Assembly: GCA_947259175.1 (NCBI GenBank)
Contig: CAMYKW010000001.1
Location: forward strand, 17,897 to 81,896
Reading direction: 5' to 3'
Length of the DNA stretch: 64,000 nucleotides
From: an uncultured Gammaproteobacteria bacterium
GTDB taxonomy: Bacteria; Pseudomonadota; Gammaproteobacteria; Arenicellales; JAANXG01
The position numbers and the translations under genes were made by a program. The notes under the pieces are model-generated. The model searched no databases, was not told the DNA's origin, and saw nothing but the letters and a program-made list of their open reading frames with translations. Below are positions 19,456-56,391 of the stretch, one piece after another; positions within the stretch are counted from its first letter, which is position 1, and every line of letters begins with the position of its first letter.

Positions 19456-21171
19456 ATGGCTAAAGCGATTAGGATCGGTGTCTTTGCGGGCCTACCCGTG
19501 GCCGTCTTTTTGTCCTTTTTCGGTTACAGTCTGTTGCAACCCGCGCGTATCGATTATCTATTCGTCACCTTTTCGTACTTCATCCTTCTCGCCGTGTGCG
19601 CCGTATGGATCGTAAACGCACTTCGCCTTTACGAGCGGTTCAAATTTCCTTTGCGGCGCGTGGTGTCGAACAGCTGGCGCGGATTGTTATTTTGCCTGCT
19701 GATCACGATCTCACTGTGCAGCGCGGTTAAACCCCACTTCCGCGTACTCGACGATGAGACCAGCCTGCTGAGTGTCTCGAATTCGCTGGCACGGGAACAC
19801 AAGGCTCGCGGTGTCACTCACGCCAAATACCTGCTCGGACGCGACTACATAGTGCTCGAACAGTATATCCCCAAGCGACCTCTGTTGTATCCGTTTCTGG
19901 TGCACATAACCCATTTGGTTCGCGGGCAGCATTGGCAAAACGGATTCATTCTAAATGCGATACTCCTGTTTGCATGTCTAGCGCTGGTATATGTTGGCCT
20001 GCGTAATCATCTCGATGACTGGGGGGCTATGGCCGGCGTGCTGCTCGTATTGGGCAATCCGATTTTCATTATCAGCGCGCGCTCCTCGGGTTTTGACTTT
20101 TTGTCCGTGTTCATTTTTTTGCTGTCTTTGGCCGGCATGTATATTTTTCTGCGTCGACCAGGACCCGTATCTTTCGGCTTCCTGTGGAGCACCTTGGTTT
20201 TGTTTTCGCACATTCGTTATGAAAACGTTTATCTGTTCGTGCTGGCGATCTCATGCGTCGCATTATTTGGACGCATGAACAAAGAATTAATCAAGAATAA
20301 TTATCTTCTGATAGCGTGGACGCCCGCCTTATTACTGCCGTACATCTGGCAGCTGTATCTTTCCAGGTCCTTTTTTGGCGACGGCATCGTGAGCAGAGCT
20401 TTTGGCGCGGATTATCTGGTCGCCAACAGCAAACGATTTGCGCTCAACCAAAGCGATCTGGGGTCTTTGTTCGACACTACGCTCTCTGATTTTACGCTGC
20501 CGGTAGCCGTGGTCATTGGCGTTTGGATGTTGTTTCGGGCGTTGCAGCGGGAATTGCGTGTTGATGACAGCGCATATCGGCAGTTCTTAGTCTTTCTGGT
20601 TCTCGTTGTCGGTATACATCTGCTGATTTTGCTTTCGTTCTACTTCGGGGACTTTACTCTCACCTACATGCAGAGGATTTATTTGCCCGTATTCAGCCTG
20701 TTGGCTTTGGTTCCGCTGATGACGCCCTGGTTGTTCGGTACGTGGATCAACACCCGAATTGTCTTTATCATTGCGGCGTTGTTGTTCGCACTCTACCTCC
20801 CGGTAAGCCTGTTCCCGCAGCGCACTGGATTGTTTTATCCCGACTTGGAGCATCAAATCGAATTCCTGCGATCCTACAATCCGAAAACGACATTGATCGT
20901 AACCGCGCGCCCGGTGCGTCTGAATGCGCTTGGCTTCGGTGCGGTCAGTTTTGATTATATGAATAACAACAAACAGACGTTCATAAACGACATACAACTG
21001 AAATCGTTCACCGACGTAATCGTGTTTCAAAGAGTAAATCACGCCACCAAGGCAGTGGACGACGGCGACTGGCTATCCGCCGACTTCTTGCTGGAATCTT
21101 TGCAGACCTTTCGCACCGCCCCACACCAACAAACGCGTATTTCGCGAATCAAGGCGTCATTGCCAAGATGA
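19456..21171 (+). CDS. Polytopic membrane protein, probable GT-C fold glycosyltransferase (ArnT/PMT_2-like)
   Basis: Many TM segments; acidic DDE motif in the first large loop, then KRPLLYPFL, LGNP and IRYE, and a soluble C-terminal domain. Family assignment is inference. Confidence 0.6.
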   Translation: MAKAIRIGVFAGLPVAVFLSFFGYSLLQPARIDYLFVTFSYFILLAVCAVWIVNALRLYERFKFPLRRVVSNSWRGLLFCLLITISLCSAVKPHFRVLDDETSLLSVSNSLAREHKARGVTHAKYLLGRDYIVLEQYIPKRPLLYPFLVHITHLVRGQHWQNGFILNAILLFACLALVYVGLRNHLDDWGAMAGVLLVLGNPIFIISARSSGFDFLSVFIFLLSLAGMYIFLRRPGPVSFGFLWSTLVLFSHIRYENVYLFVLAISCVALFGRMNKELIKNNYLLIAWTPALLLPYIWQLYLSRSFFGDGIVSRAFGADYLVANSKRFALNQSDLGSLFDTTLSDFTLPVAVVIGVWMLFRALQRELRVDDSAYRQFLVFLVLVVGIHLLILLSFYFGDFTLTYMQRIYLPVFSLLALVPLMTPWLFGTWINTRIVFIIAALLFALYLPVSLFPQRTGLFYPDLEHQIEFLRSYNPKTTLIVTARPVRLNALGFGAVSFDYMNNNKQTFINDIQLKSFTDVIVFQRVNHATKAVDDGDWLSADFLLESLQTFRTAPHQQTRISRIKASLPR

Positions 21172-26340: not shown

Positions 26341-27519
26341 TCAGTCACTCACAGCATCCATAGCCTGCAACAAACCCTGAGTCGCTATCGGAATTGTATA
26401 GTTCTGAATATGTTGTTGCGCGTTTCTACCCATCCGTTTCAAGATTTCGGGCTCGCGCGCCGTTCGTATCATTATTTGCGCCATGTCCTGTACGTCTCCA
26501 TACTCAAATGTCAAGCCAGTGTGATCTGGTATCACTAAATCCGGTCCGCATCCGACTCGGTCGCTGACTATTGCCGGTAATCCACTCGCCATAGCCTCGT
26601 TCACGACCAATCCCCATGTTTCACCATGATCAGAAGGCAGCACCAAACAATCTGCTGCGATGTATGCATTGCTAATCTCGGTTTGATTCAAGAATCCTGA
26701 AAAGGAAACCGGGATAGAACTTCTCTCGATTAAGTCACGTATCTGTCCTGATTCTTCACCTGATCCGACAATAAGTAAGTGCACTGATTTAGTTTTTCTT
26801 CTAGCTATATCGATCGCTTTGATAAGATCGGTCAATCTCTTTTTTCTTTCGAATTTTCCGGCAAACAAAAAACACACCTTATCGTCTTCGATTCGCCATC
26901 GCCTTCTTATTTCGCCTCGTCTATATCGTGTGTTTTCCGCCTGCTTGGCAAATCTTTCGTTATCAACAAAGTAGGGGCACCAAAATATCCGTTCAGCATC
27001 TACGCCGTTGTCAATATAAAATTTTTCGTTTTCCTTGCCGATAGCCAAAAACCCGTCATATCTTCTTAGCAACATTCGATGTAAGCCGCGTTTCCAACGA
27101 GAGCGCGGATGTATGGAATTAGATTCACCTCGCACCAAAACTTTTATACCGAGTCTTCGACATAAAAAAAGCGCCTGTAATAATCCAAGCGCTTGCCAAC
27201 CGGTTATAAGACAAATGTCGATTCTGTCAGCTCTCAACTGATCACTGAATTGATATATCCACTTACCAAACAGTCCGAGGGAATCATTATTTACCCGTGA
27301 TTTCATTACCGTCCAATCGTAACCATCGAGTAGCGGTATGTCCCATTGAAACGCATGACCAAATCCTTTTCCCTGCTGTCGGTCGTCGGGCATAAAAATG
27401 TAATATACCTTCACGCATATCTTGCTATTCGTGGATAGGTATCGAAACCACGGGGCGTGATATTGAATAGGATGGGTTGCAACTATCCCCAGATTTTTCC
27501 GTTTCTTAGCCACAATCAC
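26341..27519 (-). CDS. GT4 glycosyltransferase
   Basis: THPIQYHAPWF, FAGKFERKK and ETWGLVVNEAMASGLP. Confidence 0.9.
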   Translation of the reverse strand: MIVAKKRKNLGIVATHPIQYHAPWFRYLSTNSKICVKVYYIFMPDDRQQGKGFGHAFQWDIPLLDGYDWTVMKSRVNNDSLGLFGKWIYQFSDQLRADRIDICLITGWQALGLLQALFLCRRLGIKVLVRGESNSIHPRSRWKRGLHRMLLRRYDGFLAIGKENEKFYIDNGVDAERIFWCPYFVDNERFAKQAENTRYRRGEIRRRWRIEDDKVCFLFAGKFERKKRLTDLIKAIDIARRKTKSVHLLIVGSGEESGQIRDLIERSSIPVSFSGFLNQTEISNAYIAADCLVLPSDHGETWGLVVNEAMASGLPAIVSDRVGCGPDLVIPDHTGLTFEYGDVQDMAQIMIRTAREPEILKRMGRNAQQHIQNYTIPIATQGLLQAMDAVSD

Positions 27520-28934
27520 TGGACTGGATAAAGATTCTTCTTGTTGTCACTTTTGACTTCCGAATACCCACCTTCGCAACTGAACACTCTTGGCAACGCC
27601 AACACAAATCCTACCATTATGCCCAACAGCAACAGTATGTATAAGTCGCCGTAAACTTGTGACGCGATTATGAAGGTCAAAACGTTTGCGCCGAGAAACG
27701 CGGTAATAGCTACGCCTATGTGCGCGGCGGTTCTGTCTATGTGGCCGCAGTAGCGCAATATCGCGAATATCAGTTTAGACAATCTCCACGTCAACCAAAA
27801 CATGATCAATACACCCGGTACACCTAATTCCACAATGAGCTTGCCCAAGCCTCCTTCGGTTGATCCTCCTACTCTTGCAGTAACGGATTTGTCGGTAAAA
27901 AATCGCGCCCCTTGACTTCCAAGGCCCATGCCTGCGCCCATCCAACCGGTGCGCCGCAACGCGCTTTGGGCGCTTCCCAACCCAAGCAGCGAAAAGCGTT
28001 CCGGCGCATCTTCAAACACCGTCGCACCCCGTTGTAAATACAAATCCAACTGCCCTTCATATTTATCTGGAAATATCTGTTGTAGTCCCAGCCATAAACT
28101 CAGTCCCAGTGCCAACATCGTGGTTCCGACAAATATTCTTCTGCCACTCGTTTGCGTGAATACGACAAGAGAAAAATACAGTGAAAAAAATACGACAATC
28201 TCGAGGAGCATCTTACGACGACCGGTTAGGAATATCGCCCCGACGAAAACCACAAGTAGCGCGGCAAACCATAGTCTGTGCGCAGGCCTGTTTGTGAAGA
28301 TACTGATCGTCCACAACATGCAGACACTTGCGGCCAAGTGCCATGCCGTAATCTCCGGACTCCGTAGAAATCCCGAATGTGCTGTCAAAACTACACCCAG
28401 GTCATAAATAACAAGCCCTTTCCCGACTTGCTGTAAAATTTTCCAATCGACTCCAAAAAACGAGATATACACGCTTGCAGCGACAATGATGTTGAAGCCG
28501 ATATACACAGCGAGCAATCGCTTTATGTCATCAATACCGTTCACATAAAAATACGCAAGCGGAAAAGCCAATAACGGGGCGAGATACCCATTCACTCCCG
28601 CGATCGCCAGTACCACTTCATCGTAGCGCAATATCGTAGCCAGAGTTTGTATCAATAGTACCAGTAGAAATAAAATCAACGGGAGAAACAGAAGTCTGTT
28701 GAGACCAGACAACGGAACGAAATAACGCGCACCATTCCGCAAAATCGCACCTACCATCCCCGCCGCAAAAAATACACCGACCAGCACCACAAAAAACACC
28801 GGTTCATCCGGGACAAGTTTTCTAATTGGATCCTGAATGAACCCTACCGTGATGACGACAAACAACGTCATACGGGTACTGTTGAAGCACAAAATCATCA
28901 AAACCAGTGTAACGATAATAAACGCGGCCAACAT
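27516..28934 (-). CDS. Wzy/O-antigen-ligase-like polytopic membrane protein (putative polymerase)
   Basis: Many TM helices; QDPIRK, FLTGRRK, GAGMG and EGGLGKLIVELGVPG. Embedded among glycosyltransferases. Confidence 0.65.
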   Translation of the reverse strand: MLAAFIIVTLVLMILCFNSTRMTLFVVITVGFIQDPIRKLVPDEPVFFVVLVGVFFAAGMVGAILRNGARYFVPLSGLNRLLFLPLILFLLVLLIQTLATILRYDEVVLAIAGVNGYLAPLLAFPLAYFYVNGIDDIKRLLAVYIGFNIIVAASVYISFFGVDWKILQQVGKGLVIYDLGVVLTAHSGFLRSPEITAWHLAASVCMLWTISIFTNRPAHRLWFAALLVVFVGAIFLTGRRKMLLEIVVFFSLYFSLVVFTQTSGRRIFVGTTMLALGLSLWLGLQQIFPDKYEGQLDLYLQRGATVFEDAPERFSLLGLGSAQSALRRTGWMGAGMGLGSQGARFFTDKSVTARVGGSTEGGLGKLIVELGVPGVLIMFWLTWRLSKLIFAILRYCGHIDRTAAHIGVAITAFLGANVLTFIIASQVYGDLYILLLLGIMVGFVLALPRVFSCEGGYSEVKSDNKKNLYPVQ

Positions 28935-35985: not shown

Positions 35986-37125
35986 TTATGAATCGATGTC
36001 GGTGGGATTTTCCGTCGCCTTCTTGCCATCCATTAATGCTGATTTAACAATCTCAAAACCGAATTGACGCAAATACTTCAAAAATCCCCTCACCCGGCCG
36101 TAATCCTGTTGAAAAACCAGCCTTCTTAGCCGCAGCCGATCGCTTCGCGACCGCTCGTCTTCGGGCGTCATTGCAAGATCCCAGGGCACCAAGGCGCTCG
36201 CAACCTGAACCGACCGGTTCCGCGCGCGCTCATCGAGCTGAGCTGTAAGCGCCTCTTTCGAATACCCTAGTTTATTAACCAGCTCACTACCAAGGGCATC
36301 CATATATTCATATGCATAATGCAAGGTCTGTGACCGATCTGCAAGCGCCAACCACTTGTCCCTTGCCTCGCTGGTAACTGATGTGTAGTTCTCAATGTTA
36401 TCCGGATCACCAACAAACAACCGTGCGTTCGTCGTCTTTGGCCGGTCGGGCACATCGTAGCGTAGCGAAAAGCCGGACCTCTCCAGCCCCAAATAATCAG
36501 CGATTCTATTTAATTGAAAACACGGATTATCGACCAGATTCTCGTAGCTGACCTCGATACAATTACCATTAAGCGCCGCCCTTCCGTCGACCAGATCCGC
36601 CGGACCCTCTAACAAATCATAGCGACTCCAATACAACTTCTCCCATTTTCCTTTTGTCCATGTTGTCAATACCGAGTACAGATTAGCCAATGGATTTCTT
36701 GTAAGAATGACAAATTTTGCCTCGGGAAATAATACGCCGATTTCCTTTATAACCCGCGTATAAGGGGGCGACTTATCCAGGAAATACTTTTTTCCGGTAT
36801 TATGCAATGCGGTATTGTACAAACAACATGCATACCGTCGGACTGCATCGTAGAAGGCATCTTGCCCCTCCTCAAAACCGCTCAAATAATGTATTAATGC
36901 CTGCCGTGCGCCATAATGACCATATTCGGCGGATATGCCCGCTTGCCTTGTTGCGTATATGGGATGCAACAGAAACCACGACTCAACGTCGGTGTGAATT
37001 TCTTCGTTCGTGGCGAGCAAGCGCTGCAACAGCGTCGACCCGGACCTCGGCGTCGAAAATATGAATATGAGCGACTCACCTTTCAACTGTGAATCTACTT
37101 CGTGCCTTCGTGCGCCGGTTCCCAT
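35986..37125 (-). CDS. PAPS-dependent sulfotransferase (Sulfotransfer_3-like)
   Basis: 5'-PSB motif PRSGSTLLQRLL, DKSP, 3'-PB motif LTRNPLA..S and YENLVDNP. Start position uncertain. Confidence 0.88.
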   Translation of the reverse strand: MGTGARRHEVDSQLKGESLIFIFSTPRSGSTLLQRLLATNEEIHTDVESWFLLHPIYATRQAGISAEYGHYGARQALIHYLSGFEEGQDAFYDAVRRYACCLYNTALHNTGKKYFLDKSPPYTRVIKEIGVLFPEAKFVILTRNPLANLYSVLTTWTKGKWEKLYWSRYDLLEGPADLVDGRAALNGNCIEVSYENLVDNPCFQLNRIADYLGLERSGFSLRYDVPDRPKTTNARLFVGDPDNIENYTSVTSEARDKWLALADRSQTLHYAYEYMDALGSELVNKLGYSKEALTAQLDERARNRSVQVASALVPWDLAMTPEDERSRSDRLRLRRLVFQQDYGRVRGFLKYLRQFGFEIVKSALMDGKKATENPTDIDS

Positions 37126-38345
37126 TTTAAAATTGGTGTGATTATACCGACACGGCCAGGTTGCATTGGCCAGCCGACACTCATTACTTCCAGCGAAACA
37201 CTTACCTCATCGACAAGACGCGCTCTATTCAGTGTCAGTTCCTGCGCGAGAACACTTGCAACATAGTTTCCGGGGCGCAGTAGATTTGGCGGGATATAGC
37301 AACGAAGCAGCCCTCTGCCGGGTTTTTCGCTACTGTTTGAGTCGGTGTCCCATGAGGTGAGGATAGTGTTTCCATAACCGTCCATTATCCGCACCGCGAT
37401 CGTAAACCGATTGCCGGACAACTTCGAATCGTAGCCTATCTCGAGACAACCTCCCTTGTCATATCTTATGTGCTTTTCTTCCCTGCCGTCATTCCCTAGA
37501 AGTCGAATTGCATCGATATTTATCAGACGTACTTCCCGGTCAGGCGGAGCCTGCCAGTGGTTCACGGACTGTGACGTAGACGATATATACTTGTCTACAA
37601 TCTCGTTTATCGATCCGGTTGCCCTCAATCTCCCCTGATCAATGTACATACCGTTATCGCATAGTGCGGACAGTGCGTTCAAATTATGACTAACAAATAG
37701 AACAGTACGGCCCTCCAAGGCCACGTCTTTCATTTTTCCCAAGCATCGTTTTTGAAATTCCACGTCGCCCACTGCCAATACCTCATCCACCAGCAAGATA
37801 TCCGGCTCCAAGTGACCGGCTACGGAAAAAGCAAGTCGAACGTACATCCCGCTAGAATACCGCTTAACCGGTGTATCCAGGAATGTTTCAATGCCCGCGA
37901 AAGAGACGATGTCATCAAATTTCTCCCGTATTTCACTTTGCTTCATACCGAGTATTGTGCCGTTTAAATAGATGTTTTCGCGGCCGGTAAGTTCGGGATG
38001 AAAACCCATTCCCACTTCGAGAAGGCTGGACAAACGTCCCGCTATTTCTATACGACCTTGTGTCGGAGATGTAATACGACTCAGGAGCTTTAATAAAGTA
38101 CTTTTTCCCGCACCGTTGCGACCAACGATACCTATGACCTCACCGGGTTTGGCCTCGAAACTCACATCTTTCAACGCCCAGAATTTTTCGTCCTCGCCAA
38201 CCTCACCTCTCAACTTTCTGAATTTTCTGATCGGTGTGGTTGCGATCCCCGATATCATCTCTCGAAAAGAACTGTACATCTGTTCAGCACCGCCAACGAC
38301 GTACTCCTTTCCCAGATCTTCCGCTTTTACCGCCGGTCTCGTCAC
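37095..38345 (-). CDS. wzt: Wzt polysaccharide ABC transporter ATPase with C-terminal Wzt_C-type domain
   Basis: FWALKDVSF, GRNGAGKST, GFHPELTGREN, YSSGMYVRLAF and DEVLAVGD, plus a C-terminal extension. Confidence 0.92.
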   Translation of the reverse strand: MTRPAVKAEDLGKEYVVGGAEQMYSSFREMISGIATTPIRKFRKLRGEVGEDEKFWALKDVSFEAKPGEVIGIVGRNGAGKSTLLKLLSRITSPTQGRIEIAGRLSSLLEVGMGFHPELTGRENIYLNGTILGMKQSEIREKFDDIVSFAGIETFLDTPVKRYSSGMYVRLAFSVAGHLEPDILLVDEVLAVGDVEFQKRCLGKMKDVALEGRTVLFVSHNLNALSALCDNGMYIDQGRLRATGSINEIVDKYISSTSQSVNHWQAPPDREVRLINIDAIRLLGNDGREEKHIRYDKGGCLEIGYDSKLSGNRFTIAVRIMDGYGNTILTSWDTDSNSSEKPGRGLLRCYIPPNLLRPGNYVASVLAQELTLNRARLVDEVSVSLEVMSVGWPMQPGRVGIITPILKWEPAHEGTK

Positions 38346-38371
38346 TATCAGTCGTTACTCACACTGGACAG

Positions 38372-39229
38372 TCAAATCACATCGGCGAAACGCCGTTCTA
38401 CTTTATAAAAGTATGCAATCGCTATTACAAAAATTACTATCGAGACAAAAATAGAAATTGACAGCATCGCAAGATCGAACGGCTTGCCCAGAAACGCTGC
38501 TCGAAATCCTTCCACAATTCCTGCCATGGGATTTAATGCAAGTACCCAGTGCCATCTATCTGGAATAAGGCTGAGTGCATACACCACGGGTGTGCAATAG
38601 AGCCATATCTGAATCATGAATGGGACCACAAAACGAAAATCTCTATACGCGACGGTTAACGCGGCAAGGATGGTACCAAAGCCTAACGCCGTAAAGATAA
38701 CCGCCACAAAGAGCAATGGAGCAGCCAGAATATTGATTGTCAGTGGCACACCGTAATAAGTGATCAGCAACAATAGAATAACGGTAGAAATTGCGGCATC
38801 AACGAGCCCCGCACCGATTGAGGACAATGGGATTATGAGCCGAGGAAAATACACCTTGCTCAATAATTGGCCTGCTCCTACCAGCGAACCGCTTGCGGTC
38901 CCCGTAGCTTGAGCAAAAAAATTCCATGGCAATAATGCGGCAAATATGAACACCGGATATGGAAACTGGTCCGACGGCAGTTTCGCCAATCTTCCAAAGA
39001 TAACCGTGAACACGATCATCATCGTGATCGGCTGAAGTACCGCCCACGCCACCCCGAGTACCGTCTGTTTGTACCGGACTTTGATGTCCCGCACCGTGAG
39101 CACGCCAAACAGCTCGCGATACGCCCAAAGCTCCCTGATATCCAAGGTGTGCCAACGTTTGGGCGGCTCTATCACAGTAACGCGATCCGGCCCGAAATAT
39201 TCGTCATGAATCGGATCTGATTGCTTCAT
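38372..39229 (-). CDS. wzm: Wzm polysaccharide ABC transporter permease
   Basis: RDIKVRYKQTVLGVAW, KVYFPR, YRD, TPVVY, NPM and ERRFADVI. Confidence 0.92.
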   Translation of the reverse strand: MKQSDPIHDEYFGPDRVTVIEPPKRWHTLDIRELWAYRELFGVLTVRDIKVRYKQTVLGVAWAVLQPITMMIVFTVIFGRLAKLPSDQFPYPVFIFAALLPWNFFAQATGTASGSLVGAGQLLSKVYFPRLIIPLSSIGAGLVDAAISTVILLLLITYYGVPLTINILAAPLLFVAVIFTALGFGTILAALTVAYRDFRFVVPFMIQIWLYCTPVVYALSLIPDRWHWVLALNPMAGIVEGFRAAFLGKPFDLAMLSISIFVSIVIFVIAIAYFYKVERRFADVI

Positions 39230-44294: not shown

Positions 44295-45274
44295 TGATTG
44301 TTGCTGCTATTGATATTACCGCCGCGTGTGAGATATTCATCGAAGTAAGCAATGGTTTGTTTCAAACCTTCTTCCAAGGCGACTTTCGGCTCCCAGCCCA
44401 AGTGCTGCTTAGCGAACGCTATGTCCGGGCATCGTTGCCTCGGATCGTCGTGAGGCAAGGGCATATTTGTGATTCTCGATTTCGAACCGGTCAAGGCAAG
44501 AACAGTTTGCGCCAGTTCCAATATGGTGAATTCTGACGGATTCCCTGCGTTGAGAGGTCCGGTAAATTCCGCCGGCGTGTCCATGAATTTTGTCATCACG
44601 TCTATCAAATCTGATACGTAACAGAACGACCTTGTCTGCGAGCCGTCCCCGAAAATGGTTATCGGCGCGTTATTCAACGCCTGGACAATGAAATTCGACA
44701 CCACGCGGCCGTCATCAGGATGCATCCTGGGGCCATAGGTGTTAAATATGCGCAGCACCTTGATCGGAAGCCGGTGCTGCCGGTAGTAGTCGAAAAACAA
44801 GGTTTCGGCGCAGCGTTTACCTTCGTCATAACATGCCCGAACTCCCACCGGGTTTACGTGGCCCCAATAATCCTCTTTTTGCGGATGAACCACGGGATCA
44901 CCGTAAACCTCGCTGGTGGACGCCTGAAGTATGGGTGCTTTGATGCGTTTGCTCAATCCGAGCATGTTTATCGCGCCATGAACGCTCGTTTTCGTGGTCT
45001 GAACCGGATCGTGCTGGTAATGTATGGGAGATGCGGGACATGCCAAGTTGTAAATCTCGTCGACTTCCACGTAAAGCGGGAATGTTACGTCGTGCCGCAA
45101 CAATTCGAAGTTGGCGTTTCCGAGCAGATGAACAATGTTCGCCTTGGTGCCAGTGAAATAATTATCCACACATAATACTTCGTTTCCCTTTTCAATAAGT
45201 ACATCGCACAAGTGCGATCCAAGGAAACCTGCGCCACCGGTAATCAGTACTCGCTTGGTGTTATTGGTCCTCAT
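44291..45274 (-). CDS. uxs: UDP-glucuronate decarboxylase (UDP-xylose synthase)
   Basis: [41 protein letters not shown] and DGRVVSNF. Confidence 0.92.
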
Positions 45275-46712
45275 AAGAAATGGTATTCCCGTTTTTTCTG
45301 TACAAAGTTGTCGACACCAGCCCCATCGCCGAAATTATGTAGAAATACGCAGCGTTGGCCGGAATCCTGAAATTAAAATCCACAAACGCATGAATCAGGA
45401 ACGCGGTCATCGAAATCAAACAACCAAAAAGAATACTTCGATAAAGCGGGTGAGATTGCGTGTTGAACGAATAGAACAAGGTCTTGATAATCAGGAAAAA
45501 TGCCGTTCCCAAAAGCAGCGCCCCCACCAGACCATGCTCCGATAACAACTCCATATAATCTTGATGGGCATGATCATAAGTCAATTTTCGCAAGGTACCT
45601 TCCCTGTAGTTCGCAAATACCCAGCGGTAATTACCACCGCCTACGCCGAAAACCGGAAAATCCTGAATCAAGTGGCTTGTTAGTCTCCATTGCTCCAGGC
45701 GTTCGTCATTACCCAAAGTTTTAAACCTCGAGACCAGGTCCCCCACCCCCAACCATGCTGCTGATAAAACCGCAACGAGACCAAACGTAATAATAATTGT
45801 ATAGCCACGTTGTTTCCATGCCTTTTGGCGGAGCGCCGCAATCATCACTATAACAAATCCGCCAATCAATGAAATTATCCCCCCGCGGGACTGACTTAAT
45901 AACAGCGCGGAAAAAAGCACCACAAGACACATAAAGATCCACCCGGAAGGCCTCAGCAACAACTCCGTTACATTCATCATTATGTATCTCAGCTTCGTCC
46001 ACGGTCGTCGTTGGTGGAACTGGGAGAAAAACAATCCAAATCCTATGCCCATCGTCATAACAATATGCGCTGCAAAGTGATTTCGGTTCACGAATGTTCC
46101 GATAACCCAGCGATGACCATCTAGAGTTTCCTTTGGAATCAGATAAATATCTGCATACATTGCGTAAATACCGAACACAGCCTCCAACGACCCTACTGCA
46201 AAAAGCACGTAGGCAAGGGTCAGCAGTTTTCTTTTCGAATCAACCAACACGATAGTAAGAAGAAACATCGCGACGTACGCGCTGTACTTTAACAATTCCT
46301 GCAAACTGGAATTACGATCCAGACTTAAGCCATACGCCCAAAAATCTTCCGATTCGGACATTGCATCGTGATACAGGGAGTAAGTCACGGGCGAGAGGAT
46401 CTTTACGACAGATTCCGGTAACGGCAGGACTTGAAATATCTGGTAAGTCAACCACAGCACCATAAAAAACAATATGACTCTAATCGTCCCACGGTCCAAT
46501 GCAGTCTTGGACCGGGAAAAATTGTTAGCCAGAAGCCACATCAGCAAGATGGCGAAAGTCACCAGTAACATGAAATCTATTGACCACTGCATCCTGCTTC
46601 CCAGCGGGATGGGAAGCCATACAATCAGCGCGATTAGCAGCAGGTAACATATCTGCTTGGCCGATCGTGCAACGGCCTGAAAAGACTCAACGCCTAGTCC
46701 GATAACGCGCAT
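45261..46712 (-). CDS. O-antigen ligase (Wzy_C) family protein
   Basis: [25 protein letters not shown] and [14 protein letters not shown]. Confidence 0.85.
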
Positions 46713-47382
46713 CGATGCTGTTAAATAGTTTCAATAACTTTTCGTTGTCTTTCAGCAAGGGCTGTAAAAAGGCGTGCCAGTTATGTGCGACTGCCGCCTC
46801 GATAACAATGCTTGAAAGCTTCGCATCGGCAAGGGCACGGCCGACCATCTTCGACACCCGCTTTCGAGTTTCGCCCGGGAGATGAGGCCAGGCTTGAATA
46901 CCAATGACGGCTACCTTGTGTTGCACTTGTAGCTCCCATGGACCCAATGCCATCGCCTTTTCCACAGCGAAGATCATTTCCTGATCGTTTTCTCCCGTTG
47001 CAATTTTCACCGCGGCCAAAGTGGCCCAGGCCAAGCCCCAGGACGGACGTCTACGGCAGGCGGTACGCAGGTATTCGATAGCCCGCTGGTGAGACTTCCG
47101 GGCGAATTTCGGAGTCAGCCTCTGGTCGTATGCCCGCCATTGATGCATTCGCGCCGTCTGCATCAGCAGATCCACGTCCAGCGGATTAGATGACAACGCC
47201 CCGTCGAGCCGTTCCACAGAAGACGTCCAGTTATTGATGTTCTCGATCCAGCCTCGCGCATCCAATTCCGCCAAATAACGCCCCGAGGCACTCGACACGC
47301 GGTAGCCCGCCTGCGTGATGAAACACCAGGACAACAGGACAGTGGTAGCGGCGATCAGTACAAAACTGACGGGTCGGGACAA
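46687..47382 (-). CDS. VpsP-like TPR/helical polysaccharide biosynthesis protein
   Basis: N-terminal hydrophobic anchor and a helical body with RPSWGLAW...AMALGPWE, as recalled for VpsP-type proteins. Lies directly after wzc. Confidence 0.6.
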   Translation of the reverse strand: MSRPVSFVLIAATTVLLSWCFITQAGYRVSSASGRYLAELDARGWIENINNWTSSVERLDGALSSNPLDVDLLMQTARMHQWRAYDQRLTPKFARKSHQRAIEYLRTACRRRPSWGLAWATLAAVKIATGENDQEMIFAVEKAMALGPWELQVQHKVAVIGIQAWPHLPGETRKRVSKMVGRALADAKLSSIVIEAAVAHNWHAFLQPLLKDNEKLLKLFNSIDARYRTRR

Positions 47383-47677: not shown

Positions 47678-49777
47678 CTACGAGGCCCTTTTTACCGGCG
47701 CATTCTGTTGCTCAGCACCCCCATAATAATAGCCGTACTTTCCGCTATAGTAATATGGCGCCTTCTTGAAACTCACCTGGCTCAGGACGAATCCCAGCGG
47801 CACAATATTGGCCGATTCCAAACGCCTGAGCGCGTCACGCACCATCTGTTGCGTCGTATGCTCGGATTGGATCACCATGACTACCTCATCAACGATGTGG
47901 CCCAAGACAACTGCGTCGCTTACCGGCAATATCGGTGCGGTGTCGATAACGATGTGCGCAAAGCTTTTCTTGAGTTCAAGGATAGCCTTTTCCATTCTTT
48001 GGGATGAGAGCAACTCCAATGGATTTGGAGGAATGACTCCACACGCCAGGATAGACAACTCCGGACAATCCGAGTCTTGTTTTACACATTCCCTGAGGGG
48101 CTTGGTCCCGGCGACGAAATCGATTAATCCGACATCGGTGTCGATTGTGGCGATCTGTCCGAGCCTGGGTTTTCTTAGATCGGCATCTATGAGCAATGTG
48201 TTGCCAAGTTGCGCCAACGACAACGCAAGGTTCGTCGCCAACGTCGTCTTTCCTTCCGCCTGAACCGATGACGTGATCAGTACAACTTGAGGGGGATCGT
48301 CGATATTCGAGTACATGATCCCGGTACGTATATGGTTTACGGATTCAGAGAAGGATGATTTCTTTTCGTTGAGGAAGAAGCGTTCCGGGCCACCCAAATA
48401 CTTGCTTTTCGACGACTTGGTCGCTTGCGTGATGTTTTTCAACTCCCTGGAGCTCACCAACGGGACAACCCCGAGCACCGGTAGATTGAAGCGTTGTTCT
48501 ATCTTCTCCGTATTACTGAATGTGTTATCCAGATGATCCCGAAGAAAAGCAAGCAGCACACCGATACCCAAACCAATCAAACCCCAAATAGTCAGAATCT
48601 GCGCTTTGTCCGGCTTGAAGGGTGCCTTGGGCGGTAACGCCACGTCGACTACCCGTGCGCTACTCAATTGATTGTCTACCGACAAATCGGTCTCGCGGAA
48701 TTTATTCAGGAATACGTCATACAGCTCTCTATTGGCGTTCACTGCTCGCTCGAGTTCCGCCAACTCGAACTCCTTGGTGCGGGTATCTACGACGCGCCTT
48801 GAAGTTTCCGCCAAGCGGCGCTTCGTCGTATCCAATTCCCCACGCGCGGCAAGCATTCTAGGATGTTTAGGGCCATACCTTTTCGCCAGTTCCGAATACT
48901 TGGTGTTTGCAGTAATCAACTCTTGATTCAGCGTGTTCAACTCAACACTAGTAAGTTGCTCGATGCTCTTCAGGTCTATCATCCCTTCCCGCGATTGAAA
49001 CTCCTGTAAATTACGTTCCGATATCGTCAATTTCTGTCGCAAGTCGTTCAGCCTCTCAGTCAGCCAGTTGCTGGCGCGTTTGGCCCGATTGAGGCGCGAT
49101 TCCAGTTCCAGTTCAATATACGAATCCGCCAGTGTATTAGCGACTTCAGATGCAAAATTCGGATCTACGGAATCGAACGACACATACACCAATTGGCTTT
49201 GTTCTCCACCCCGAACACTTACGCCTCCCTGGATCATTGCGGCCATAGCCTCACGTTTGGCTTTCTCTTGATGAGCGCTCAAGGATGGCTTCTGGTTTGT
49301 ATTCTCTGTTTTCCCACCGCTGCCGAAGTCAACAAGCTTTTTTATTTCATCGATAATAGAAAATGTAACCCGTGATTTCGGTGCCCCGCGGTTTATAAGA
49401 TCCATCTTATTCGCCACACGCTCCGCCACCGCGCGGCTACGCAGAAGATCGTATTGCGTCTCGTAAAAACGCCACGCAGTTGCGTAGACGACTGCGCCTT
49501 GGTTCGCAGACGCCAAAGATGAAAAGTCCGGCTCTACTACCATAGTGACGGTGCCCCGGTAAACAGGGACCCCGGACATTACCTTGAGACCGCCAATGAT
49601 GGCGCCCATCAGAGCCATGGCAAGAATGCTCCATTTATAGCGCTTGATAACGCCCAGATAATCGCTGAAGTTTATTCCTGGATCATCGGCTTGAGAGAAA
49701 ATAACCGGTAATGACGACGCTCGCGCACCATCACCTGTTTTCACCGTCTGAAGTCTTAAGTTCGATCCCGAATCCAT
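47678..49777 (-). CDS. wzc: Wzc/GumC-type polysaccharide co-polymerase with BY-kinase domain
   Basis: Two TM helices around a coiled-coil periplasmic domain; Walker A' SVQAEGKTT, IDADLRKP, DTAP and Tyr-rich tail PYYYSGKYGYYYGG. Confidence 0.92.
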   Translation of the reverse strand: MDSGSNLRLQTVKTGDGARASSLPVIFSQADDPGINFSDYLGVIKRYKWSILAMALMGAIIGGLKVMSGVPVYRGTVTMVVEPDFSSLASANQGAVVYATAWRFYETQYDLLRSRAVAERVANKMDLINRGAPKSRVTFSIIDEIKKLVDFGSGGKTENTNQKPSLSAHQEKAKREAMAAMIQGGVSVRGGEQSQLVYVSFDSVDPNFASEVANTLADSYIELELESRLNRAKRASNWLTERLNDLRQKLTISERNLQEFQSREGMIDLKSIEQLTSVELNTLNQELITANTKYSELAKRYGPKHPRMLAARGELDTTKRRLAETSRRVVDTRTKEFELAELERAVNANRELYDVFLNKFRETDLSVDNQLSSARVVDVALPPKAPFKPDKAQILTIWGLIGLGIGVLLAFLRDHLDNTFSNTEKIEQRFNLPVLGVVPLVSSRELKNITQATKSSKSKYLGGPERFFLNEKKSSFSESVNHIRTGIMYSNIDDPPQVVLITSSVQAEGKTTLATNLALSLAQLGNTLLIDADLRKPRLGQIATIDTDVGLIDFVAGTKPLRECVKQDSDCPELSILACGVIPPNPLELLSSQRMEKAILELKKSFAHIVIDTAPILPVSDAVVLGHIVDEVVMVIQSEHTTQQMVRDALRRLESANIVPLGFVLSQVSFKKAPYYYSGKYGYYYGGAEQQNAPVKRAS

Positions 49778-50784
49778 TAAAACAAACTCGCACCCACTGT
49801 GATTACATCACCAGGCTCAACCGAAACATCGAGCCCAACTCGTTTCATCCGTACGAACTCCCCGCTTTCGTTCTCGCGGGAGATCTGTATCTTTCGTTTT
49901 GACGCACGATCGCTGAATCCACCCGCCAAAGCCAGCGCTTTTTCGACCGTCAACTCTTCCCTATACTCGTAGCTTCCCGGATTCTTAACCTCACCATGCA
50001 AGTATATGAATTGTTTGGGGTCGTCCTCGATCACCTCGGGTATGGTGACAACGTCGCCCGGCAGGATCCAATATTCCAGACCCACTGACTGTGGTTGACC
50101 ATTGTCACGGAGCACGGTGATGCCTTCCACCTGGCCCGACTTGGACAAACCGCCGGCCAAAGCAAGTGCTTTTTCCACGGTAAGCCCTTCGGCGTAGCCA
50201 TGGGCGCCAGGCGAATTGACACCACCCTTCACGAATACAGGTCGATACTCGACGATAGACACCGAAACTTTCGGCTTTATTAAAAAACCGTTACTTAGAA
50301 GCGTCGTAAGGCGCTTTTCCAATGAACGCACGGTGTGTTGGTTGATGCGTATCTGCCCCAATAAGGGATAGGACACCAAGCCGTCTGTCGGCACTCTGAT
50401 ACTGTTCAAACTCAGGTCAGGCTCGCCAAACACGCGCACGGAAATGACGTCGCCCGGTGAGATTAAGTATTCGTGCAGAGCCCGCCGCGCACTGGGTGCG
50501 GCTTTTGCCGACATGCTGGCGATAGCGCCATACACCGGCGGCGCAGCGTTTGCCCGCGGAGCGGGCCGACCTTTCATCAACGGTCTCGTCGCAGTTTTGC
50601 GGGAAGCGACGCCGGCGGCAGCCGGTGCAACGGGTTTGGAATCGACCGGGTTGGTACCGGATTGCACATTTCTGCCAACCCGATATTCCAGATCCAGGCG
50701 GACACTCAAATTGTCGGCTTGCAGCATGCTGGCGACCGGAAGACTGGCCGCCAGACCCAAGAATAACACTAGCCACTTACCCAT
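49777..50784 (-). CDS. OPX/Wza-family export protein (Poly_export + two SLBB), no lipobox and no C-terminal OM helix
   Basis: YLISPGDVISVRVFGEPDLS, YPLLG, two GxVxxPG...ALALAGG SLBB repeats; ends PGDVITVGASLF. The ORF extends to 50826. Confidence 0.87.
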   Translation of the reverse strand: MGKWLVLFLGLAASLPVASMLQADNLSVRLDLEYRVGRNVQSGTNPVDSKPVAPAAAGVASRKTATRPLMKGRPAPRANAAPPVYGAIASMSAKAAPSARRALHEYLISPGDVISVRVFGEPDLSLNSIRVPTDGLVSYPLLGQIRINQHTVRSLEKRLTTLLSNGFLIKPKVSVSIVEYRPVFVKGGVNSPGAHGYAEGLTVEKALALAGGLSKSGQVEGITVLRDNGQPQSVGLEYWILPGDVVTIPEVIEDDPKQFIYLHGEVKNPGSYEYREELTVEKALALAGGFSDRASKRKIQISRENESGEFVRMKRVGLDVSVEPGDVITVGASLF

Positions 50785-50838
50785 AAGACTTGGGGCGAGA
50801 GATACGCAAAACTGATCCTGGCCCAACCGGCACGCGTG

Positions 50839-52185
50839 TTAACGTGCTCGACTGCCCATTCTAAAATCACCTCTCAAGAAGATGGATGCGACCTCGTCTT
50901 TATATTCCACTTCCGGCACATTGGAATCCCGCTTCACTTCGCCGTACTGGGCAGCAACATTCAGCCAATCGTTTATTTTGTAGCTCACGCCAACACCATA
51001 ATCATTGATTTTGTCGAGTCGATCGTCCGTATAATCGTCTTCGATATGATTATAAAACGCGAAAAAACGCCACCTTGATGTCAAGTCGTGTATCCAGTTC
51101 ACACCGATCAAATCGCTGACAAAATAGGCCGACCCGGAGGGATCGAACTCCTGCTGTGCGGCTTCTTCAGTTGTGCGGGATGCATAAAGATCAAATCGAC
51201 TGTAGGGCCTGGGCGCCCAGAGAATCTTGCCCAAATAGGTCGAACCGTCATAGTCCGGCAAATTCGGGTCATCCATGTCTTTGTCCAGTTGACCAACCTT
51301 CGCGAGCACATCGATGAGATTGGTGGCGCGCCACCGAACGCCGACAAAATACGCCTCTTCCTTACTATCGCGATTTTCGATTTGCTGCGGATATTCTATG
51401 TCCGTGTGCCTGGCCTCCAGAAACAGGCTGGTCTTTGGAGCCACGTTGTAAAACAACGCTCCGCGAACACTTGCATAATCTCGATCGCGAAATTCTTGGT
51501 CATTGTTTTGATATTCCCATTCAGACTTGCTGGCGCCTACCACGACACGGAACGTTTGCGACGGGCGCCCGAAGATGAGGTTACCACCGTAGGTCAGGGT
51601 TTCGACTTTGTCGGGTTCCAAGTCCTCGAAAGTCCTGGAACCGGAACCGCCGCGTTCTTCGGATGAGTCGTTAAATTGCCCGAACAGGCCGATCTCCAAC
51701 GCTGGAGTCAGGTCGAACCGCAGCGCGCCGGTGAGGCTTTGATTGGTGACATCCTCATTGTCAAGGTCACGATGCCGCAGGATATTCGCCGCATATCCAA
51801 TCCTGCCTCGGTGGCGACCGCGTATGTCATTCTCGTAGGCCAGCTCCGGCTGAATCACAAAAGCGGTATCACTTATTTCACTGTTGGCAGTACGCCTGAC
51901 GTTGCTGTGGCGCCGCGCTCCAACGCCCAGTGCGGCGTAAAAACCAAACAAGTCCGGCTGCCACCCCTCGGGGGGCGGTCCGATAATGCGTGCCGTTTGT
52001 GCGGCAGGCGATACCCCAAACACTGGTTGCTGATTCGCGAGGTTTTCCGTATCCACCGAGTTGTCTTGCGCCGCACCCGGCAGCGCCAGCAGCGTGGCCG
52101 ATATCCCTGCCACCAACCGCGTAACGAAAAGACACTTTCTGTTACGCGCGTGGTGCGGGTCCGGTTGTCGTCGTTGACTGATCAT
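50839..52185 (-). CDS. Outer-membrane beta-barrel protein (VpsM/EpsX-like, BBP2 family)
   Basis: Signal peptide and many alternating aromatic/polar strands (ALFYNVAPKTSLFLE, YFVGVRW, YGVGVSYKIN). Immediately upstream of the OPX gene. Confidence 0.78.
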   Translation of the reverse strand: MISQRRQPDPHHARNRKCLFVTRLVAGISATLLALPGAAQDNSVDTENLANQQPVFGVSPAAQTARIIGPPPEGWQPDLFGFYAALGVGARRHSNVRRTANSEISDTAFVIQPELAYENDIRGRHRGRIGYAANILRHRDLDNEDVTNQSLTGALRFDLTPALEIGLFGQFNDSSEERGGSGSRTFEDLEPDKVETLTYGGNLIFGRPSQTFRVVVGASKSEWEYQNNDQEFRDRDYASVRGALFYNVAPKTSLFLEARHTDIEYPQQIENRDSKEEAYFVGVRWRATNLIDVLAKVGQLDKDMDDPNLPDYDGSTYLGKILWAPRPYSRFDLYASRTTEEAAQQEFDPSGSAYFVSDLIGVNWIHDLTSRWRFFAFYNHIEDDYTDDRLDKINDYGVGVSYKINDWLNVAAQYGEVKRDSNVPEVEYKDEVASIFLRGDFRMGSRAR

Positions 52186-52198
52186 GCCCTGCCCTCCC

Positions 52199-53494
52199 CT
52201 AGGGCCTCACCGGCGATGGCGGCGGCGGAGGCGTCGTAGTTGGCGGCGGCGTTGTCGGCGGTGGTGTCGGTGTCGGCAACGGCGAACCCCCCCCGCCGCC
52301 TCCGGAGGTGCGATAGGGTTGCCCAGGAACCGGCGGCGGTTGACAGATCGACGGGCTTGCGCCCCCCGCGACCGCAGCGGCGCAGATCAAAACGGTGTTA
52401 CGAATCAGGTGGCCACAAGGCGGCCGCCCGAGGTCATGGTAAAGATACACCACCGGTATTTCAGTGATGCCCAATTCGGCTGCGGCGACCAAGCGGTCTG
52501 CTTCGTTGGCCCAAACCTGTCCGTCCCCGGAATTGAACAACGACAGCAGCAACGGCTCTTGAAAACCATTGTCCCTGATGTCCTGTGTAATGCGTTCCCA
52601 GCGACCGGGATCAATTTCGTTCTTGCTCCTGGCATTGATTAAACCCAGCAGTTCTTGCACCGACCCAAACATGTGGAAATCCCCCACATCCTGCCACTCG
52701 GGAACAGCGGTGAGTTTGAGCCCACGCTCGAAGAAATCATTGACGATTTCCGTAGCGGTAACGTCGGCGGGATAGCGGCTGATCGGCCGCGTGCGTATGT
52801 CGTTGTATACGAAAACCACCGGCAACTCGAGGATTCCCTGTTGCTGCGCTTTACGAATACGCTCAACACCACTGTCGATCACGATTTCATTCTGATCCCG
52901 GTAAAATGAGATAAATATTGGACGATTTGACGCATCTCTCGGTGAGCCGGGTTGCAGGGTTCCCTTCTGGTACCAGAACTCGTCGCTGATCAGCCCGGCG
53001 AGTTCCGCGGTCGTCGCCATGATGTGAAATTCGCCTTGATTCCATTTCGGAAACGGACTGATGCGCTGATCTTCGTCGAAAAAGCGGCGCGCCACTTCTG
53101 CAACCGTGGATAGTGCGCCGAGATCACCGGCGAGATAGGTGATGTAATAGCGATCGGCGCTGTCAACGTCCTGTATTGTCCATCCCGGCAGCAGCGGTAA
53201 CAATGACACCGCCGTGTCATAAAACTCCTGCGCACGGCTGGGATCCGCCTTTACCGCCAGATACACGACGTCGTTAATCGACGTGCCCAATGAAACGATG
53301 TGCAGCATCACCGAAACCGTAGGATATCCCTGGTTGAGCAATGACTTGATTTCCTCAAAGGTCCTCCTGTCAATGTCCAAACGGACCGGGTCGGTATCCG
53401 ATTGAATGTGCACGTCGGTGCTGATTTCAGCCTGAACCGCAAATGGAATTACAGCAATCGATAGCAGAATTCCCAAGATTGTTCTTTTGTTCAT
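52199..53494 (-). CDS. Secreted protein with tandem ParB/sulfiredoxin-like repeats and Gly/Pro/Thr tail; first gene of the polysaccharide locus
   Basis: Signal peptide ending AVQA, GAGG RBS, internal duplication aa 130-232 / 246-354 and tail GGGGGGSPLPTPTPPPTTPPPTTTPPPPPSPVRP. The CDS call is firm; the fold is inference. Confidence 0.7.
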   Translation of the reverse strand: MNKRTILGILLSIAVIPFAVQAEISTDVHIQSDTDPVRLDIDRRTFEEIKSLLNQGYPTVSVMLHIVSLGTSINDVVYLAVKADPSRAQEFYDTAVSLLPLLPGWTIQDVDSADRYYITYLAGDLGALSTVAEVARRFFDEDQRISPFPKWNQGEFHIMATTAELAGLISDEFWYQKGTLQPGSPRDASNRPIFISFYRDQNEIVIDSGVERIRKAQQQGILELPVVFVYNDIRTRPISRYPADVTATEIVNDFFERGLKLTAVPEWQDVGDFHMFGSVQELLGLINARSKNEIDPGRWERITQDIRDNGFQEPLLLSLFNSGDGQVWANEADRLVAAAELGITEIPVVYLYHDLGRPPCGHLIRNTVLICAAAVAGGASPSICQPPPVPGQPYRTSGGGGGGSPLPTPTPPPTTPPPTTTPPPPPSPVRP

Positions 53495-53736: not shown

Positions 53737-55026
<1,290 letters not shown>

Positions 55027-55335
55027 TCAAATATTGACATTTGCCTGCCAATGAACCACGTGACCAGGTTCAAATTCATTCTCCAGATGAGCCAAGATCA
55101 TCTCGATCTTACTTGCATCGTCAAAGAACTCCACCACCAGCGGCAGATCACTGGTTAATTCCAAAAGGTGAGAAGAATGCATCCTGCCCGATTTGCCGAA
55201 GCCCGACACACCGCGAAATACCGTGACTCCTCTGACTTTTTCAACATCATGAAGCCGCCTCAATAACGGATCGATCTGTCGTTCGCCCTCGGTGAGATAG
55301 ACGCGAACGAAAATGACGCGTTCGGTTTTCATCAA
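55027..55335 (-). CDS. DUF190 (PII-like) protein, CrcB-associated
   Basis: RGVTVFRGVSGFG and DLPLVVEFFD; directly after crcB. Confidence 0.85.
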   Translation of the reverse strand: MMKTERVIFVRVYLTEGERQIDPLLRRLHDVEKVRGVTVFRGVSGFGKSGRMHSSHLLELTSDLPLVVEFFDDASKIEMILAHLENEFEPGHVVHWQANVNI

Positions 55336-55338
55336 CGC

Positions 55339-55713
55339 TTATACATGCCGGGCAAGACTAACGCCGATCCAGGTTCCCGCGAGGCATAGTGACACACTGA
55401 ATATCACGTTGGCCGCGGCGCGCCAGTAATAGCCGGACGCTACCAGGCTATACGTCTCCAACGTAAAACTGGAAAATGTCGTGAAGCTTCCTATAAGACC
55501 AACTAATACCGCCAAACGCCACGCCTCGCTCGCCGCGGACCTATCCAAAAACCATACGAACAGATAGCCGATCAAAAATGATCCGGCCAAGTTGACGACC
55601 AGCGTCCCATAGGGAAACCCCCTGCCAAACAGCTGATGAACGCCGGACGCGACCATATAGCGCAAAACCGCCCCGACAGCGCCGGCCGCCGCTATCGCGA
55701 GCAAATTACTCAT
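55339..55713 (-). CDS. crcB: Fluoride efflux channel CrcB/FluC
   Basis: GAVGAVLRY, FPYGTLVVN and GSFTTFSSF. Confidence 0.93.
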   Translation of the reverse strand: MSNLLAIAAAGAVGAVLRYMVASGVHQLFGRGFPYGTLVVNLAGSFLIGYLFVWFLDRSAASEAWRLAVLVGLIGSFTTFSSFTLETYSLVASGYYWRAAANVIFSVSLCLAGTWIGVSLARHV

Positions 55714-55752
55714 TGCACCCTGAAACACGGACGAACGCAAAAACGACGATTG

Positions 55753-56391
55753 TTAATTCTTGGTTTGATCGATCACGTCAACACCACGGGGAGGCACGAA
55801 TGCGAACCTGTCATCCGCCACACGAGGATTCTCCACCACCTCGAGGAATGTGATACGGGTAGTCTGACCAAGATTGTCAACGAGCTCCATGACACGCAGG
55901 TTGCCATTCTCAAACCCGATGCGCATGTCGGCAAAGGCGCTGTCCTCCTGTTTCGACCGCATACCCACCCAGGACAACTTACCGTAAGTGCCCAAGTCAG
56001 TGACGGAGTAGTTTTGGGATATATTTCCTTTACCCGCCAATATGCTGGCCGGTGTCTTACCCAAAGTATCCTCCAGCGGGCGGACAGTCACTTGTTCCAG
56101 ATCAATATCGTGAATCCAAACTTTGTCGCCATCGCTGATTATCTTTTGCTCCAGCGGAGGATCGTAGTCCCATCGAAAACGGCCTGGTCGTTTGATAGTC
56201 ATACGGCCGCCGCTTTCCTCGATCTGATTGAGTTCCTCGTCAAGCACGACCTGTTCAAAACGAGCGCTTAAGGTCAACACCTCACGGAAAAACCGGTTGA
56301 GGCTGTCCGCCCCCTTGGGCGCGGGTACTGCGGGCCACGGCCAGGCAACGGCAACCACCAGCAACAATCGCATCATATTTCGTAGCAGCAT
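55753..56391 (-). CDS. lolA: Outer-membrane lipoprotein chaperone LolA
   Basis: ARFEQ, KRPGRFRWDY, SDG..W.HD.DLEQV, TPA and PPRGVDVI. Confidence 0.93.
   Translation of the reverse strand: MLLRNMMRLLLVVAVAWPWPAVPAPKGADSLNRFFREVLTLSARFEQVVLDEELNQIEESGGRMTIKRPGRFRWDYDPPLEQKIISDGDKVWIHDIDLEQVTVRPLEDTLGKTPASILAGKGNISQNYSVTDLGTYGKLSWVGMRSKQEDSAFADMRIGFENGNLRVMELVDNLGQTTRITFLEVVENPRVADDRFAFVPPRGVDVIDQTKN

Follow-up and report, generated by a model that had tools for sequence, protein, structure and literature searches.

A predicted exported protein with paired, motif-decayed ParB/sulfiredoxin-like inserts at the head of a polysaccharide export operon

The 64,000-nucleotide stretch of an uncultured Arenicellales genome analyzed here (the window) holds a polysaccharide export operon whose first gene encodes a 431-aa protein with a hydrophobic leader and two internal repeats reminiscent of ParB and sulfiredoxin (Srx). 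What would such a fold, best known from inside the cell, be doing in the envelope, and what might it have to do with a glycan on its way out? A sequence-only reading had drawn attention to positions 52433 to 53107, which correspond to residues 354 to 130 of the 431-aa open reading frame (ORF). Sequence comparison places the protein in an undescribed family that is homologous to ParB/Srx, whose member here is predicted from its motifs to be inactive, and that sits within a known kind of export system. Neither Pfam nor NCBIfam holds a curated family for it, a search of the ESM Atlas returned no usable match, and no description of the family was found in the open-access literature.

A predicted exported protein and its export operon

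The N terminus of the protein runs from K/R through a hydrophobic stretch to AVQA, and a hydrophobic stretch is found at the N terminus of 61/67 homologues compared to 1/67 in a mid-protein control, which supports the sequence-only reading in calling the protein exported. Conserved Cys pairs in the family fit an oxidizing compartment. The claim that the gene leads the operon also holds: it lies 242 bp after serS and is followed by gaps of 13 bp to the porin gene, 12 bp to the OPX gene and -1 bp to wzc (Table 1). A search for a σ70-like promoter found none. In most members of the order, too, the export operon follows serS. Positions 53737 to 58701 of the window carry the block ftsK-lolA-crcB-(DUF190-like)-serS without rarA, a gene that some relatives do have (L030, L046).

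Table 1. Features of the 431-aa protein and of the surrounding glycan cluster, in window positions
Feature	Position	Strand	Basis or remark
Exported-family protein, 431 aa (helical scaffold, two ParB/Srx-like inserts, Gly/Pro/Thr tail); operon gene 1	52199..53494	-	
Predicted Sec signal peptide, aa 1-22	53429..53494	-	Sequence and hydrophobic N termini of homologues
N-terminal helical scaffold, aa 40-107	53174..53377	-	Shares homology with small exported proteins that lack inserts and belong to the same operons
ParB/Srx-like repeat 1, aa 128-238	52781..53113	-	Remodelled further than repeat 2; W174 invariant
ParB/Srx-like repeat 2, aa 243-358	52421..52768	-	
C-terminal scaffold helix, Cys pair 371/384	52337..52417	-	Relatives homologous to LapA retention-module DPxxxxxxTAAG
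Poly-Gly, then Pro/Thr-rich tail ending SPVRP; candidate glycan acceptor	52202..52336	-	Putative function
BBP2 / VpsM-EpsL-like outer-membrane β-barrel (porin)	50839..52185	-	PF10082, E = 1.6e-34
OPX protein, short periplasmic type	49777..50826	-	Poly_export and two SLBB
Wzc-type co-polymerase / tyrosine kinase	47678..49777	-	
VpsP-like TPR protein	46687..47382	-	Scores below NF038257 cut-off
Wzy_C O-antigen-ligase-like protein; candidate transferase onto tail	45261..46712	-	HAHQD motif
Wzm/Wzt ABC glycan flippase, same cluster	37095..39229	-	
10-TM protein, 472 aa; candidate second Wzy-like enzyme	27516..28934	-	No Pfam/NCBIfam match

The operon resembles the composite OPX/β-barrel translocons EpsX/EpsY and VpsM/VpsN (10.1101/2022.04.04.486985, as far as the accessible text goes) in that a short OPX gene is coupled to a β-barrel gene and a PCP, here Wzc, in one operon. 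Compared to those systems, the cluster here additionally has Wzm/Wzt and a Wzy_C ligase, and the accessible part of that study mentions no extra carrier protein for them. The Wzy_C protein is the sole PF04932 match in this genome and could therefore be an LPS ligase or a polymerase; its ligase His motif, HAHQD, is present by strict pattern in 9/15 orthologues. The 472-aa membrane protein is a possible polymerase. Between positions 21000 and 53500, Wzm/Wzt is thus combined with Wzc, OPX, the porin and two Wzy-like membrane proteins, alongside UDP-sugar epimerases/decarboxylases, many glycosyltransferases, a sulfotransferase, a carbamoyltransferase, an AsnB-like amidotransferase and WecA, which would amount to an unusual, hybrid pathway for a decorated glycan. 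The OPX protein also carries a low-complexity N-terminal extension of ~100 aa ahead of Poly_export.

Two ParB/Srx-like repeats with decayed motifs

The duplication noticed in the sequence-only reading is real: repeats 1 and 2 share 28% identity over 117 columns, and their local alignment scores 132 compared to 26.1 ± 4.6 (maximum, 51) in 2,000 shuffles. Profiles of the two repeats align at 99.35% (hhalign, E = 6.6e-21), although the A3 profile used in the profile-profile comparisons includes three stand-alone proteins (P0118, P0125 and P0126) and leans towards ParB. Several lines of evidence, each modest when its score is taken alone, agree that both repeats are homologous to ParB/Srx at the level of sequence profile and predicted fold. 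A profile built from the family only matches SbnI (E = 0.024). With the family profile, ParB-type N-domains were recovered from 12 genomes of the class (13 loci, 11 of them with GERR; per-genome E = 4e-7 to 8e-5), and the profile's second-best match among the 15,195 ORFs of this genome is the chromosomal ParB (E = 2.4e-5), to which the ParB-leaning A3 profile aligns at 89% in hhalign. ParB-like PHROG families match both repeats (E of ~0.006 each). The stand-alone proteins P0118, P0125 and P0126 are small, have an intact EGNHR, match ParB_N themselves and align along the full repeat with its N-terminal extension, thereby bridging the repeats to recognized ParB domains; they likely represent the donor type of the insert. 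Looking up the origin of P0125 revealed no viral contig.

Structural modeling agreed with this assignment. The AlphaFold model of the protein (pLDDT, 93; pTM, 0.89) returned ParB, Srx, Noc, SerK and SbnI as the top Foldseek rows, with modest E values (at least 0.03 in PDB and 8.5e-4 in BFVD). The best structural match of repeat 2 was sulfiredoxin (PDB model 6ky4; Z = 6.4, rmsd of 3.5 over 80 aligned residues), and repeat 1 matched at Z = 4.6. PF02195 (ParB_N) did not match the 431-aa protein and reached 2/32 family members, at best with E = 0.12 and below the gathering threshold; the repeat-1 profile had no match among PDB sequences. Two rows pointing to a flavin oxidoreductase or 2Fe-2S subunit (E ≤ 0.11) were dropped, as fold searches gave them no support. 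The earlier description of two degenerate ParB/Srx-like domains is therefore upheld. Both repeats share a homologous core with the N-domain of ParB, Noc, sulfiredoxin, SerK and SbnI, but unlike PF02195 members, the family is predicted to be exported, is tandem, falls below the Pfam cut-off, has decayed P- and C-motifs, lacks a helix-turn-helix (HTH) or dimerization domain and adds an N-terminal helix-strand extension.

How far the nucleotide motifs have decayed differs between the copies. The sequence-only reading held that GxxR was altered in both, which does not strictly apply to repeat 1, where DSGVER formally retains GxxR (GVER, 52859 to 52870), but does apply to repeat 2, where NEADR (52493 to 52507) has lost the Gly, and describes the family as a whole: GxxR occurs in 29/116 repeat-1 and 1/110 repeat-2 sequences, Gx[HR]R in 0/116 and 0/110 and the C-motif [QN]PR (Box I) in 0/116. 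As neither the P- nor the C-motif is conserved, NTPase activity is unlikely, and from its motifs, the tandem is predicted to be a noncatalytic pseudo-enzyme pair. It is barely credible that the domains work as a ParB/Srx-type phosphotransferase or hydrolase outside the cytoplasm. The fold is predicted with high confidence to have been kept, repeat 1 reads GVER and the P-motif Arg persists in repeat 2 of this protein and in 71/110 repeat-2 sequences, but the motif counts stand against it, and both Gly and Arg are essential in ToxB, a toxin of the same fold (10.64898/2026.05.05.722872, available text). Nevertheless, W174 (115/115), H157 and H274 are strongly conserved in the inserts, which may indicate a role beyond bulk.

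The premise that ParB/Srx folds are cytoplasmic proved too strong, since ParB toxin domains that are exported have been described (PMC3482391 and 10.64898/2026.05.05.722872, in the portions accessible), though these act inside the target cell. Tox-ParB/ToxB domains of polymorphic and CDI systems share with the present family a repurposed ParB fold in an exported protein. According to the same partial sources, they differ in keeping G[NH]HR, acting in the target cytoplasm and having immunity genes, none of which was seen here; ToxB hydrolyzes ATP, a capacity of which the family gives no sign.

The composition of the tandem bears on the further suggestion that the exported fold binds the anionic polymer or extracellular DNA. 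Net charge has a median of -12 across the family, is -12 in the 431-aa protein and is positive in 8/111 members, which argues against simple polyanion or DNA binding and leaves that suggestion unsupported. We therefore regard a surface or matrix protein with polymer- or DNA-binding ParB-like domains as very unlikely, even though genes for a sulfotransferase and UDP-sugar epimerases/decarboxylases belong to the cluster, conserved aromatics could stack sugars and binding may be bridged by cations. A dedicated route for the protein across the outer membrane was not found. Furthermore, ParB itself does not bind DNA through its N-domain. ToxB, with the same fold, does not bind DNA (10.64898/2026.05.05.722872, available text).

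A helical scaffold with a LapA-like helix and a terminal serine

What the sequence-only reading does not mention is a conserved helical scaffold with a Ser tail, in which the ParB pair is an insert that some members lack. At class-wide vpsP loci, an Ala-rich protein of 136 to 221 aa with a leader precedes the porin gene in 8/11 loci with a recognized porin, and the profile of this insert-free scaffold aligns to residues 44 to 110 of the 431-aa protein (hhalign, 93.9%; E = 1.5e-7). The AAIxAGADP helix of the scaffold corresponds, by inspection, to residues 370 to 386, and helical matches to the model cover both ends of the chain. The ParB units are therefore insertions within a scaffold loop. 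Two Cys flank the insertion and were lost together in the clade of the 431-aa protein (72 members with both, 8 with neither and 6 discordant), and members carry 0, 1, 2 or 3 inserts. Mature family members have an odd number of Cys in 42/68 cases; Cys360 (52415 to 52417) may be unpaired or in an interchain bond.

The scaffold is unevenly spread. It directly preceded the porin gene in 0/20 loci picked by porin score and lay nearby in 2/20, both adjoining the ligase gene, and no scaffold gene was found within 1.5 kb of the porin at the 30 top-scoring porin loci outside the class. Genome-wide, it was matched in 7/24 porin-operon genomes (2 of the 7 being in the profile) versus 1/20 controls, the single control match falling in a LapA-like adhesin, at its retention module. 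Three of the matches in porin-operon genomes are ~1,050-aa FecR fusions (L223:1237-4347, L225:4816-8028 and L227:4064-7354) with Ala-rich helical repeats and a PSPS end, which are large, undescribed versions of the scaffold.

The likeness to LapA extends to the helix that follows the inserts. As described for LapA (10.1101/198937, accessible text), the LapG cleavage site is [T/A/P]AA[G/V], with a helix and DPxxxLxx ahead of it and poly-Gly behind. Relatives of the 431-aa protein carry an element of this type in register (e.g., DPNSCLSATAAG and DPTTITPPTAAG) and thus share helix, DPxxxxxx[TAP]AA[GV] and poly-Gly with the LapA retention module (NF033682, retention_LapA), which gave weak, below-cut-off matches in 6/13 scaffold proteins (best E = 2.2e-4) and none in the 431-aa protein. 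Some relatives also have a FecR-like N-domain. By the published pattern, lapG is present in 7/9 genomes with the site versus 7/25 without (P = 0.017), a correlation that spans ~3 lineages when the strict pattern is applied and draws on related, non-independent genomes; an earlier motif pattern (9/10 versus 5/24) had been picked post hoc and was replaced by the published one. Of the two site-bearing genomes without lapG, one owes its match to a sequence inside repeat 1 and the other is 77% complete. Where site and lapG coexist, the two genes are within ~8 kb of one another in 4 of 7 genomes. A loose TAA/AAG motif was found in only 12/104 family members.

The 431-aa protein itself lacks the site, and its genome (97.7% complete) lacks PF06035, ruling out cleavage by LapG; LapD was not matched in this genome by a search whose control matched nowhere either. 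LapA modules, in the accessible account, belong to RTX adhesins and type 1 secretion, whereas the family here has a Sec-type leader and no RTX adhesin. The chain, moreover, ends 21 to 65 residues past the helix (10th to 90th percentile; 45 residues in the 431-aa protein) in a Ser-Pro motif. All 19 insert-free members, a set that excludes P0115 with its one insert and different ending, have Ser at -3, and 11 of them end in SP[SN]. Among insert-bearing members, SP[SN]-COOH terminates 25/116, compared to 0/223 neighboring proteins, and Ser/Thr is at -3 in 52/115. The SPVRP that closes the Thr-rich tail of the 431-aa protein is a variant of this Ser-Pro-[SN] terminus. A PEP-CTERM-like sorting signal serving multiple substrates was rejected for this genome, as this ORF alone among 15,195 combined a credible leader with the tail. 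Clade-specific ends in L023, L024, L025, L040 and L041 (QCTS/QCTAS and CASPPC) put the terminal Ser beside Cys.

Gene neighborhoods and candidate roles at the pore

Homologues number 32, including the protein itself, in the 90% collection and 99 at the 50% level. Matches occur in 25/41 relatives and, across the order, in 42/121 genomes, two of these by weak ParB-type matches only; relatives are found among records of Arenicella, a genus with cultured strains. Outside the order, members are rare, with two full two-repeat members and one three-repeat member in 400 class genomes. The 36 loci around matches in relatives divide into 26 of subfamily A, three of them cut by a contig end, and 10 of subfamily B. 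In subfamily A, the porin gene is directly downstream in 23/23 loci with downstream DNA, followed by OPX in 19, and in two loci the gene-porin pair stands alone elsewhere. One member at class level (L105) adjoins vpsP, with the porin not adjacent. The expectation that homologues precede vpsM/N/O/P-like genes is thus borne out for subfamily A but not for the 10/36 loci of subfamily B, where FecR, HD, CHASE2 and lapD genes are found instead.

One reading of the subfamily-A arrangement is that the protein is a noncovalent periplasmic partner of the porin/OPX translocon (an assembly factor, gate or chaperone) to which no glycan is attached, with the Ser-Pro tail docking on the barrel and the ParB pair serving as an interaction surface. 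The porin is the tightest linkage in the family and the only companion in two loci, the 13-bp gap is a distance typical of translational coupling and each operon has a single copy of the gene. We nevertheless consider such a partner somewhat unlikely: in three loci the insert-free gene is next to that of the ligase, in two of them without an adjacent porin, and the LapG site and the invariant Ser would be left unexplained.

The simplest account, in that it makes use of the porin and ligase linkage, the retention-type helix with its LapG site and the terminal Ser alike, is that the 431-aa protein is a periplasmic carrier and stopper, whose Ser tail takes a glycan from the Wzy_C ligase and keeps it anchored at the pore; we put this forward tentatively, at a little short of an even chance. 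The operon's Wzy_C ligase would transfer a lipid-linked glycan onto the C-terminal Ser/Thr tail, and the tail with its glycan would thread through the pore, the folded body being retained in the periplasm. The dead ParB pair would mainly enlarge this periplasmic body, as structural bulk or as a binding surface. In relatives with an intact DPxxxxxxTAAG, LapG could cut the tether; with both site and protease lost in this genome, the anchor would be permanent. Wzy_C enzymes are reported to glycosylate the C-terminal Ser/Thr of small partner proteins with lipid-linked glycans (PMC9829042, available text), and the vps-linked, ligase-like RbmD of Vibrio cholerae appears to use a VPS-derived glycan (PMC6901666, available text). 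As in such Wzy_C oligosaccharyltransferase (OTase)/acceptor pairs (TfpO, TfpM, PglL and RbmD in the accessible parts of these two sources), a ligase gene is near that of a small exported protein whose C-terminal end has a conserved Ser. In contrast, the known C-terminal OTase acceptors in these texts are pilins that receive the glycan at their final residue, whereas the family here is no pilin and its Ser is mostly at -3. A survey of Vibrio clusters describes vps-2 as traveling with rbmDEF, with no function given in its available text (10.1101/2024.08.19.608685).

Several observations count against the carrier and stopper role: the SPVRP terminus of the 431-aa protein deviates from the motif, Ser/Thr is at -3 in fewer than half of the insert-bearing members, the known C-terminal OTases act on the last residue, the lapG correlation covers few lineages, the scaffold gene is not universal in porin operons, 10/36 loci lie away from export genes, the Wzy_C protein could have either of its other functions and the conservation of W174, H157 and H274 may mean more than bulk. 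A broader version, which we find rather doubtful, is that porin/OPX/VpsP/O-ligase operons across Proteobacteria encode a covalent capsule anchor built on a Sec-exported, retention-module-like carrier that LapG could release as c-di-GMP falls. The glycan would be ligated to the C-terminal Ser and the tail threaded through the pore, with the folded body as stopper, bulked here by a dead ParB/Srx pair derived from stand-alone ParB-like genes. If true, this would be a protease-releasable covalent anchor for capsules and might represent the "unidentified component" to which VPS is reported to be bound (PMC6901666, available text). Even without that broader version, the family is a candidate carrier, marked by a terminal Ser, an adjoining ligase and, among some members, a LapG site, that bears on how polysaccharides of composite OPX/β-barrel systems stay on or leave the cell. 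Apart from function, the locus offers a well-supported case of a duplicated, motif-decayed ParB/Srx fold in a likely envelope protein, with intermediates present as an intact stand-alone domain and as one, two or three inserts.

Subfamily B directs attention to signaling. A FecR gene is adjacent in 9 of its 10 loci, with an HD protein in 7, a CHASE2 adenylate cyclase in 5 and lapD within 8 kb in 4; some family members are fused to FecR, OmpA or further envelope domains, the FecR fusions including P0049 and P0071. The ParB-like pair might thus keep a ligand pocket (for phosphate, sulfate, a metal or a sugar) and act as an envelope sensor reporting via a FecR-like domain to cyclic-nucleotide enzymes of the inner membrane, a role with which the conserved His, Glu, Asp and Trp and the P-motif Arg retained in most repeat-2 sequences are consistent. 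We think a sensor unlikely. FecR is also fused to insert-free scaffolds (the three cases above), so the signaling link belongs to the scaffold and not to the ParB pair, and a subfamily-A copy is present in each of the 10 subfamily-B genomes as well. The FecR paralogue of this genome (G000:C46:36698-37759, minus strand) likewise counts against a sensor; it has the short β motif of subfamily B without a helical or ParB part. In four subfamily-B loci (L033, L034, L035 and L042), a module of FecR, a paralogue from the present family and an HD protein lies beside lapG/lapD and a UDP-sugar dehydrogenase gene, and each paralogue has the LapG site in register, making these proteins candidate nonadhesin substrates of LapG.
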